Shown here piece after piece: positions 3,515 through 4,688 of a DNA stretch of 11,574 nt (position 1 is the stretch's first letter; each line of letters begins with the position of its first letter). This stretch comes from Escherichia coli (GTDB taxonomy: Bacteria > Pseudomonadota > Gammaproteobacteria > Enterobacterales > Enterobacteriaceae): assembly GCF_003334315.1 (NCBI RefSeq), contig NZ_QOWR01000085.1. One strand, written 5' to 3'. The notes under the pieces were generated by a model. The model was not told the origin of the DNA and did not search any database. It saw only the letters and a program-made list of their open reading frames with translations. The position numbers and the translations under genes were made by a program.

Positions 3515-3730
3515 ATGAAATCCATGGACAAAATTTCAACAGGCATTGCCTACGGCACCTCCGCAGGCAGTGCTGGCTACTGGTTTTTACAGTTGCTCGA
3601 TAGAGTAACTCCGTCACAGTGGGCTGCAATCGGTGTGCTGGGTAGTCTGGTATTTGGCCTGCTGACGTACCTGACAAACCTTTATTTCAAGATTAAAGAA
3701 GATAAGCGCAAGGCTGCGAGAGGTGAATAA
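3515..3730 (+). CDS. S: Class II holin, phage 21 S-type pinholin with dual start
   Basis: SD GGAGGTGA 4 nt upstream of ATG 3515; translation [71 protein letters not shown] matches the S21 holin as I remember it; Met1 and Met4 form the antiholin/holin dual-start motif; two transmembrane segments. The 90 aa ORF from 3458 in the track is an upstream extension without an RBS. Confidence 0.85.
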
Positions 3731-4227
3731 TGCCTCCATCATTACGAAAAGTCGTTGCCGCTGCTATTGGTGGCGGAGCAATTGCTATAGCATCAGTGTT
3801 AATCACTGGCCCAAGTGGTAACGATGGTCTGGAAGGTGTCAGCTACATACCATACAAAGATATTGTTGGTGTATGGACTGTATGTCACGGGCATACAGGA
3901 AAAGACATCATGCTCGGTAAAACGTATACCAAAGCAGAATGCAAAGCCCTCCTGAATAAAGACCTTGCCACGGTCGCCAGACAAATTAACCCGTACATCA
4001 AAGTCGATATACCGGAAACAACGCGCGGCGCTCTTTACTCATTCGTTTACAACGTGGGTGCTGGCAATTTCAGAACATCGACGCTTCTTCGCAAAATAAA
4101 CCAGGGCGATATCAAAGGCGCATGTGATCAGCTACGTCGCTGGACATATGCTGGCGGTAAGCAATGGAAAGGTCTCATGACTCGTCGTGAGATTGAGCGT
4201 GAAATCTGTTTGTGGGGTCAGCAATGA
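3730..4227 (+). CDS. R: SAR endolysin (phage 21 R-type lysozyme with signal-anchor-release domain)
   Basis: TAATG overlap with the holin stop; N-terminal Gly/Ala-rich weakly hydrophobic SAR segment ([18 protein letters not shown]) followed by a lysozyme-like domain; near-identical to R21 from memory. Confidence 0.9.
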
Positions 4228-4688
4228 ACAGAGTAACCGCGATTATCTCCGCTCTGGTTATCTGCATCGTCGTCTGCCTGTCATGGGGTGTTAATCATTA
4301 CCGTGATAACGCCATCGCCTACAAAGAACAGCGCGACAAAAATGCCAGAGAACTGAAGCTGGCGAACGCGGCAATTACTGACATGCAGATGCGTCAGCGT
4401 GATGTTGCTGCGCTCGATGCAAAATACACGAAGGAGTTAGCTGATGCGAAAGCTGAAAATGATGTTCTGCGTGATGATGTTGCCGCTGGTCGTCGTCGGT
4501 TGCACATCAAAGCAGTCTGTCAGTCAGTGCGTGAAGCCACCACCGCCTCCGGCGTGGATAATGCAGCCTCCCCCCGACTGGCAGACACCGCTGAACGGGA
4601 TTATTTCACCCTCCGGGAACGACTGGTAATGATGCAGGCCCAACTTGAAGGTGCTCAGCAATACATAACCGAGCAGTGTTTAAAGTAA
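4224..4688 (+). CDS. Rz: Rz i-spanin (inner-membrane spanin)
   Basis: ATGA overlap with the endolysin stop; N-terminal transmembrane segment then a long charged coiled-coil periplasmic domain; contains the embedded Rz1 gene in the +1 frame. The track ORF from 4212 starts at an upstream GTG. Confidence 0.8.
4444..4629 (+). CDS. Rz1: Rz1 o-spanin (outer-membrane lipoprotein), embedded in Rz
   Basis: Strong SD AAGGAG 7 nt upstream of ATG 4444; lipobox VVGC; proline-rich mature part ([15 protein letters not shown]); wholly inside Rz in another frame. Confidence 0.8.

Follow-up and report, generated by a model that had tools for sequence, protein, structure and literature searches.

A probable phage-21-type lysis cassette with intact genes in the late operon of a Rac-like Escherichia coli prophage

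Lysis cassettes described for lambdoid phages and prophages

Pinholin/SAR-endolysin cassettes are textbook knowledge with respect to type, mechanism and distribution; they are very common, and RefSeq already annotates their genes. For comparison we used the expert-annotated record of phage 21 (OL657228), which names the S21-71 antiholin, the S21-68 pinholin, the SAR endolysin, the i-spanin, the o-spanin and the ribosome-binding sites. An intact cassette of the same type, essD-rrrD-rzpD/rzoD, is found in the DLP12 prophage of E. coli K-12, for which a host-level role in cell-wall maintenance and vesicle production was reported (PMC7918800). The S105/S107-R-Rz-Rz1 genes of phage lambda resemble the cassette analyzed here in their Q-dependent late transcription, in the dual-start holin/antiholin and in the embedded Rz/Rz1 pair, which belongs to the same family and has its Cys residues at the same positions (PMC6139136). 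They differ in the holin, which in lambda is of the canonical large-hole type, and in the endolysin, since lambda R lacks a SAR domain and is soluble in the cytoplasm (PMC9636201). The first-pass annotation of the present DNA had spoken of a well-described system, in agreement with the fact that a cassette of this type is annotated in phage 21, in DLP12 and in RefSeq genomes.

The homologues from phage 21 and lambda suggest how the present gene products would act (PMC9636201; PMC9239132; PMC6139136). Q-modified RNA polymerase would start at a late promoter just past Q, read through several terminators and transcribe S-R-Rz/Rz1. S would be translated from two starts, yielding S68 (from Met4) as the pinholin and S71 (from Met1, with the extra Lys2) as its antiholin, and the extra N-terminal positive charge would allow S71 to delay triggering. 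After Sec-dependent export, R would accumulate in an inactive state, with its weakly hydrophobic N-terminal SAR domain as the anchor in the inner membrane. S68 would then, at a defined time, form heptameric pinholes of ~2 nm, with collapse of the proton motive force. Upon depolarization R would leave the membrane, refold and degrade the peptidoglycan with its E35-D44-T50 triad. Rz of the inner membrane and Rz1, an outer-membrane lipoprotein, would form a complex disulfide-linked via C99/C152 of Rz and C29 of Rz1, which would disrupt the outer membrane by fusing the inner with the outer membrane. It is from these homologues that we infer expression, timing and lytic activity of the present cassette.

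The four lysis genes compared with phage 21, DLP12 and Rac

The window, i.e., the whole analyzed stretch of E. coli DNA, comprises 11,574 nt. The following features were assigned to the cassette and its direct surroundings.

3515-4688, + strand: S-R-Rz-Rz1 lysis cassette, 1174 nt, four overlapping ORFs, from the ORF listing and sequence reading of 3300-4900
3503-3509, + strand: Shine-Dalgarno sequence GGAGGTG, 5 nt before ATG 3515, serving the S dual start; counterpart of the ribosome-binding site annotated in phage 21
3515-3730, + strand: S71 antiholin (antipinholin), 71 aa, ATG 3515 with MKSM start; 64/71 residues as in phage 21 S21-71; PF04971; PHROG holin
3524-3730, + strand: S68 pinholin, 68 aa, starting at the ATG of Met4; position equal to the annotated S21-68 of phage 21
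3720-3726, + strand: Shine-Dalgarno-like sequence GAGGTGA, 3 nt before the R start
3730-4227, + strand: R, SAR endolysin (lysozyme-like muramidase), 165 aa; 163/165 residues as in phage 21 R; PDB 3HDE, 3HDF, 4ZPU
3748-3810, + strand: N-terminal SAR domain of R (approximately residues 7-27), a Gly/Ala-rich hydrophobic segment
4224-4688, + strand: Rz, i-spanin, 154 aa; 138/154 residues as in phage 21 Rz; PF03245; PHROG 13
4431-4436, + strand: Shine-Dalgarno sequence AAGGAG for Rz1, inside Rz, 7 nt before ATG 4444; phage 21 has an annotated ribosome-binding site at the corresponding position
4444-4629, + strand: Rz1, o-spanin lipoprotein, 61 aa, ATG 4444 to TAA 4629; 56/61 residues as in phage 21 Rz1; PF06085

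Intact S, R, Rz and Rz1 genes had been claimed for 3515-4688 by the first-pass annotation, together with a pinholin dual start, a SAR endolysin and an embedded Rz1. The coordinates turned out to be exact, and all three traits were present. Both the ORF listing and the gene-by-gene alignment to phage 21, which had been proposed as a check, were free of internal or premature stops and of frameshifts for all four genes. The gene order was colinear with the annotated phage 21 lysis genes (OL657228), with equal starts, stops and lengths, and the overlaps, the MKSM dual start and the +1 embedded Rz1 were the same. The genes are thus intact and colinear, with overlaps, ribosome-binding sites and the compared residues kept. 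DNA identity to phage 21 was 94.6% over the first 1099 nt of 3515-4688. A nucleotide search with 3515-4688 matched 548 phage records, with 95-98% identity to phage 434, the PhiR series and mEp332, the last two being phages recorded with E. coli laboratory hosts. Because of the 94.6% identity to phage 21 and the family assignments obtained for all four products from Pfam, PHROGs and PDB, the resemblance is not due to chance. NCBIfam gave no match for S, Rz and Rz1, and for R only matches below cut-off. ORFs on the minus strand inside 3515-4688 did not exceed 61 aa and were disregarded as noise. Judged from sequence, 3515-4688 very probably represents a complete phage-21-type (pinholin/SAR-endolysin/two-component spanin) lysis cassette in the late operon of a Rac-like lambdoid prophage. 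From the intactness of the genes we infer a functional cassette in the sense of coding capacity.

The N-terminus of S reads MKSMDK, with in-frame ATGs at 3515 (M1) and 3524 (M4), Lys at codon 2, a single Shine-Dalgarno sequence (3503-3509) ahead of both starts and a shared TAA stop at 3728-3730. Such a dual-start antiholin motif with an extra N-terminal positive charge (M1-K2-S3-M4) was described before (PMC9636201). S matched the Pfam family PF04971 'Bacteriophage P21 holin S' with 2.4e-35 over model positions 1-63 of 64. Two hydrophobic segments were found, a Gly/Ala/Ser-rich one at residues 8-26, corresponding to a weakly hydrophobic TMD1, and TMD2 with a G40xxxS44xxxG48 face; residues 35-54 formed the only segment with a mean Kyte-Doolittle hydropathy above 1.5. 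G40, S44 and G48, a motif with a role known from the S21 literature, were kept in the comparison with phage 21. With a DNA identity of 80% to phage 21 S, dS was ~2 at saturated synonymous sites, dN 0.054 and dN/dS 0.03; at this level of comparison S shows strong purifying selection. Compared to DLP12, 67/71 residues were identical. EssD differs from the present S at four positions only and shares with it six of the seven substitutions relative to phage 21. A dual-start regulatory hairpin was sought by RNA folding of 3476-3560 around the 5' end of S; the MFE was like that of shuffles (z = -0.52). GTG 3458 was considered as alternative S start (90 aa) and rejected, as the sequence shared with phage 21 does not extend upstream of 3476 and the Shine-Dalgarno sequence is placed for ATG 3515.

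S and R are joined by a TAATG junction, in which the last A of the S stop is also the first base of the R start codon (3730-3732); R ends with TGA at 4225-4227. PHROGs assigned R to the endolysins. Against PDB, R matched 3HDE and 3HDF (labelled 'Lysozyme') and 4ZPU (labelled Lysozyme RrrD) with E values of ~1e-111, for 3HDE with 9.6e-111 over residues 1-165. We take 3HDE and 3HDF to be the membrane-tethered and the active form of R21, respectively. The RrrD structure 4ZPU is from DLP12 according to reference 19 of PMC9239132. E35, D44 and T50 are kept in R and constitute the catalytic endolysin motif E-X8-D-X5-T (given in PMC9239132). Residues 8-26 contain 53% Gly/Ala/Ser with a maximal 15-residue hydropathy of 2.2, and positive charges precede the segment. 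Only two residues differ from phage 21 R (A8V, M98T), while 163/165 residues are identical in DLP12. Position 8 is Ala in phage 21, DLP12 and phage vB_EcoS-683R6; Val, a lineage-specific change, recurs in E. coli M10, Combat11I9 and C2. None of the R proteins encoded in the phage collection was identical to the present one, the best reaching 99.4%. The function of a SAR domain depends on its weak hydrophobicity (see also PMC9239132). At the sequence level, A8V may be taken as a caveat on R activity.

At the R/Rz junction ATGA, the ATG of Rz (4224-4226) overlaps the R stop; the Rz stop TAA is located at 4686-4688. A Shine-Dalgarno-like site of at least 4 bases was absent before the Rz start, while the other three genes have one. 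This absence fits a dependence of Rz translation on the ATGA overlap with R, and Rz would then be coupled to R. The first-pass annotation had called the genes translationally coupled: the TAATG and ATGA junctions are indeed there, and coupling is what they would suggest. Rz1 starts 220 nt into Rz in the +1 frame and is wholly embedded. The dedicated ribosome-binding site that had been proposed for it was confirmed as the AAGGAG listed above. Rz matched PF03245 (4.2e-53, residues 29-152) and PHROG 13, Rz-like spanin (1e-77); an N-terminal transmembrane segment (maximal hydropathy of 3.05 at residues 4-18) is followed by a periplasmic domain. Rz1 matched PF06085 (2.5e-19) and contains the lipobox VVGC with Cys20, followed by Thr-Ser (no Asp at +2, in line with sorting to the outer membrane), which leaves a mature protein of 42 residues with 10 Pro. 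Cysteines are located at positions 99 and 152 of Rz and at position 29 of Rz1; the lipobox consensus and the disulfide roles of Rz C99/C152 and Rz1 C29 were described for lambda Rz/Rz1 (PMC6139136). GTG 4212 as Rz start (158 aa) was rejected, since ATG 4224 matches the annotated i-spanin start of phage 21 and the ATGA overlap. In the 5' part of Rz, 7.5 non-synonymous exceeded 1.5 synonymous changes relative to phage 21, both being small numbers; this excess was counted against the lysis-cassette explanation.

The cassette is a patchwork of the kind ordinary in lambdoid mosaicism. A mosaic joint relative to phage 21 is evident from 80% DNA identity for S versus 98.6% for R. Toward the 3' end the resemblance changes: the final 75 nt of Rz (4614-4688), including the final 4-5 codons of Rz1, depart from the phage 21 and DLP12 sequences and are identical to K-12 Rac. 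In embedded i-spanins the last tenth is known to be variable (PMC6139136). In some E. coli genomes another endolysin gene adjoins the Rac-type Rz-trkG part, and the match to the present DNA sets in exactly with the start of Rz. Rz of DLP12 has an annotated non-ATG start (V1 in the translation) and 16 differences from the present Rz, and the C-termini of Rz and Rz1 in DLP12 are of the phage 21 type, not of the Rac type. The flanks differ as well. Phage 21 has tRNA genes upstream and bor downstream, while TolA-like genes are located upstream and trkG downstream here. Between Q and S no tRNA genes were found, unlike in phage 21 and vB_EcoS-683R6. DLP12, with nmpC upstream and borD downstream, is a prophage different from the present one.

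K-12 Rac aligned to the window only over 4244-6674, with 99.7% identity. Shared are the 3' end of Rz, Rz1 and the trkG junction; everything left of 4244 is missing in K-12 Rac, including S, R, the Rz start codon and the first 7 Rz codons. The annotation there lists rzpR as a pseudogene, together with an intact rzoR and with trkG behind it. By this alignment, the Rac late region is present in the window in undeleted form, and the comparison defines the K-12 Rac loss as everything left of Rz codon 8. The Rac early region (recET, racR, ydaS-V) and the integration site of K-12 Rac are outside the 11,574 nt. The earlier statement on decayed Rac lysis genes in K-12 holds, with homology of Rac only from 4244 onward; as K-12 DLP12 carries an intact cassette of the same type, the contrast is restricted to Rac.

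Late transcription, prophage damage and distribution

Upstream of the cassette the following features are of relevance for its expression.

702-1244, + strand: Q-like late antiterminator gene (DUF1133), 180 aa; Pfam DUF1133 2.8e-107, weak Phage_antitermQ match of 1.4e-4
1245-1306, + strand: late promoter with leader (probable); 62 nt directly behind the Q stop, conserved with phage vB_EcoS-683R6
~1322-1350, + strand: predicted terminator, hairpin with T-run, following the conserved 62 nt; the hairpin differs from genome to genome
1672-1691, between Q and S: terminator-like hairpin
3389-3412, + strand: intrinsic-terminator-like hairpin ~100 nt upstream of S; 7-bp stem with 5 GC pairs, followed by TTTTTATATT

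The Q-like gene is intact and its product identical to WP_000640161.1 of E. coli M10; the counterpart in phage vB_EcoS-683R6 is annotated as 'antitermination protein Q'. An STnc100 sRNA match and two genes with TolA C-terminal domains lie between 1350 and S. A consensus promoter match at 1615-1644, with the terminator at 1672-1691, was considered as late promoter as well. The region 1245-1306 was preferred as part of the sequence conserved with vB_EcoS-683R6, and both are candidates. S is located ~2.2 kb and at least 3 terminator-like hairpins downstream of the likely late promoter. Because of several such hairpins between promoter and S, only Q-modified polymerase should reach S, and by analogy to other lambdoid late operons, expression of the cassette should need Q-dependent readthrough of at least 3 terminators.

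The prophage is defective in the present genome, since ISEc27, the end of which occupies bases 1 to ~80, truncates the DUF1367 gene at the left edge, and IS1, beginning at 11124, cuts the portal gene after codon 139. Neither the ISEc27 nor the IS1 junction was found in any of the 5426 complete E. coli genomes, and the IS1/portal junction was absent among the GTDB species representatives. On the left side two relatives were inspected, E. coli M10 and Combat11I9; in both, hokD is directly preceded by host (non-phage) genes, without an early region. As the prophage is cut by IS elements and the early region is absent beside hokD in these two relatives, Q may never be induced here.

Using a threshold of 80% coverage for 3300-4900 including the trkG junction, 704 of the 5426 complete E. 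coli genomes were positive, with 609 records at 99% identity or above. For the cassette-centred query 3480-4860, at least 80% was held by 2556 complete E. coli genomes and some match was detected in 5328. In other genomes RefSeq names the genes essD, rrrD, rzpD or 'lysis protein', and rzoD. Strain M10 differed from the present stretch by one synonymous base in 1601 nt. Seven trkG-linked relatives were checked (six E. coli genomes and phage vB_EcoS-683R6; 94.8-99.9% identity), and all of them keep the four ORFs and the catalytic triad intact.

Alternative readings and present role

An assignment to the canonical lambda type, in which a large-hole holin is combined with a soluble cytoplasmic endolysin, is effectively refuted at the sequence level and has almost no probability left. 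It shares only the order S-R-Rz/Rz1 and the lambda-like Rz/Rz1 with the present locus, while S belongs to the P21 holin family with 71 residues and two hydrophobic segments, and R, 99% identical to its phage 21 counterpart, carries the hydrophobic Gly/Ala-rich segment at its N-terminus. Open reading frames could also hide a product inactivated or mistimed by missense changes, i.e., by A8V in R or by the seven S substitutions relative to phage 21, so that lysis would fail. V8 does not occur in R of phage 21, DLP12 and vB_EcoS-683R6, an identical R was missing from the phage collection, and A8V raises the hydrophobicity of the SAR domain. The exchange is, however, a conservative one in a marginal position of the SAR segment, DLP12 EssD has six of the seven S substitutions as well, all compared catalytic and structural residues are kept, and dN/dS of S is 0.03. 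We therefore give an inactivating missense change a very small chance.

More weight is due to the possibility that the phage-21-type cassette, although intact, is no longer used for phage release, being either silent or kept at low expression for a host function as in DLP12. This would concern the present role, not the coding content, and is compatible with the lysis-cassette explanation; by analogy to DLP12 we regard it as possible, yet rather doubtful. Disruption of the prophage by ISEc27 and IS1, the host genes that adjoin hokD on its left side in M10 and Combat11I9, the four intact ORFs in all seven trkG-linked relatives checked, ~700/5426 genomes with the cassette joined to trkG and the DLP12 precedent (PMC7918800) argue for it. 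Conversely, an active phage that decayed only recently could have left the ORFs intact as well, sequenced phages contain near-identical cassettes, and the sample of relatives is small (n=7). More specifically, cassette and Q might have been kept in the IS-bounded remnant, in hundreds of E. coli genomes, through a domestication like that of DLP12; this reading, based on analogy, we consider improbable.

Beyond annotation, the significance of the locus is little. Despite the IS damage elsewhere in the prophage, a presumably lysis-competent set of genes is still there, which may be of relevance for strain stability, vesicle or toxin release and engineering, as stress-induced expression of Q could still kill the cell. 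If domestication were true, envelope turnover, vesicle release and altruistic lysis would be possible host functions, and A8V in R might then tune spontaneous endolysin release.

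Mosaic structure and annotation of the lysis cassette

The phage-21-type lysis cassette contains sharp mosaic joints. At the joint between the pinholin/antiholin gene S (3515-3730) and the SAR endolysin gene R (3730-4227), DNA identity to phage 21 changed from 80% in S to 98.6% in R. The last 75 nt of Rz (4614-4688) were likewise sharply set off and found to be of the type of the Rac prophage of E. coli K-12, not of the phage 21 type. Precisely at the start of Rz, some E. coli genomes have another GH24 endolysin joined on instead. Codon 8 of R (3751-3753), located within the SAR domain, encodes valine, whereas alanine is found at this position in R of phage 21, of the K-12 prophage DLP12 and of phage vB_EcoS-683R6. 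In E. coli, Val8 recurs in R of the M10, Combat11I9 and C2 prophages. An identical R protein was not encoded by any record of the phage collection, where the best match reached 99.4%.

The cassette was found inconsistently annotated in RefSeq, both at the M10 locus (12928-13527) and in other genomes. Some genomes list rzoD without an Rz gene, others list Rz (as “lysis protein” or rzpD) without Rz1. Despite these gaps in the gene lists, both open reading frames were intact at the DNA level.

Putative transcription signals and TolA-like genes between Q and S

The following features were identified between the Q-like late antiterminator gene (702-1244, + strand) and S:

1672-1691, + strand, terminator-like hairpin upstream of S
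1992-2178, + strand, STnc100 sRNA (Rfam), full-length match, 86.6 bits versus a gathering score of 47
2289-2717, + strand, TolA-like ORF 1, lipoprotein-like N-terminus, Pfam TolA C-terminal domain PF06519 (3e-23)
2868/2889-3263, + strand, TolA-like ORF 2, lipoprotein-like N-terminus, in tandem with ORF 1
3389-3412, + strand, terminator-like hairpin upstream of S

Sequence comparison showed that the 62 nt directly 3' of Q are kept in phage vB_EcoS-683R6. This stretch (within 1245-1350, + strand) likely represents the late promoter and leader and is followed inside the same interval by a hairpin with a T-run. The further two terminator-like hairpins ahead of S imply Q-dependent readthrough. The match to STnc100, a gammaproteobacterial sRNA, lies within the intergenic “moron” region from Q to S.

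The tandem TolA-like ORFs are also placed between Q and the lysis genes. Homologues of both are named TolA or TolA C-terminal domain-containing proteins in RefSeq. Speculatively, their products may have a decoy function against TolA-dependent colicins or filamentous phages.

Downstream genes and IS elements at the window edges

1-80, left edge, end of ISEc27 (IS3 family), truncating a DUF1367 gene
4826-6283, + strand, trkG potassium transporter gene
6421-8137, + strand, ParB/Srx-like nuclease-domain gene (263 aa) and overlapping hypothetical gene (317 aa)
11124-11574, right edge, IS1, interrupting the DUF4055 portal gene after codon 139

Searches of 5426 complete E. coli genomes detected neither the ISEc27 nor the IS1 junction, and GTDB species representatives likewise gave no match to the IS1/portal junction.

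The trkG gene is a moron, with the lysis cassette on one side and the ParB-like and terminase genes on the other. Its GC content is 0.375-0.41 versus 0.47-0.52 in the flanking DNA, and the encoded protein is identical in sequence to TrkG of E. coli M10. trkG is followed by the ParB/Srx-like gene and the 317-aa hypothetical gene, and these in turn by the small terminase gene. As homology to K-12 stops at 6674, K-12 ynaK is a truncated remnant of the ParB/Srx-like gene.
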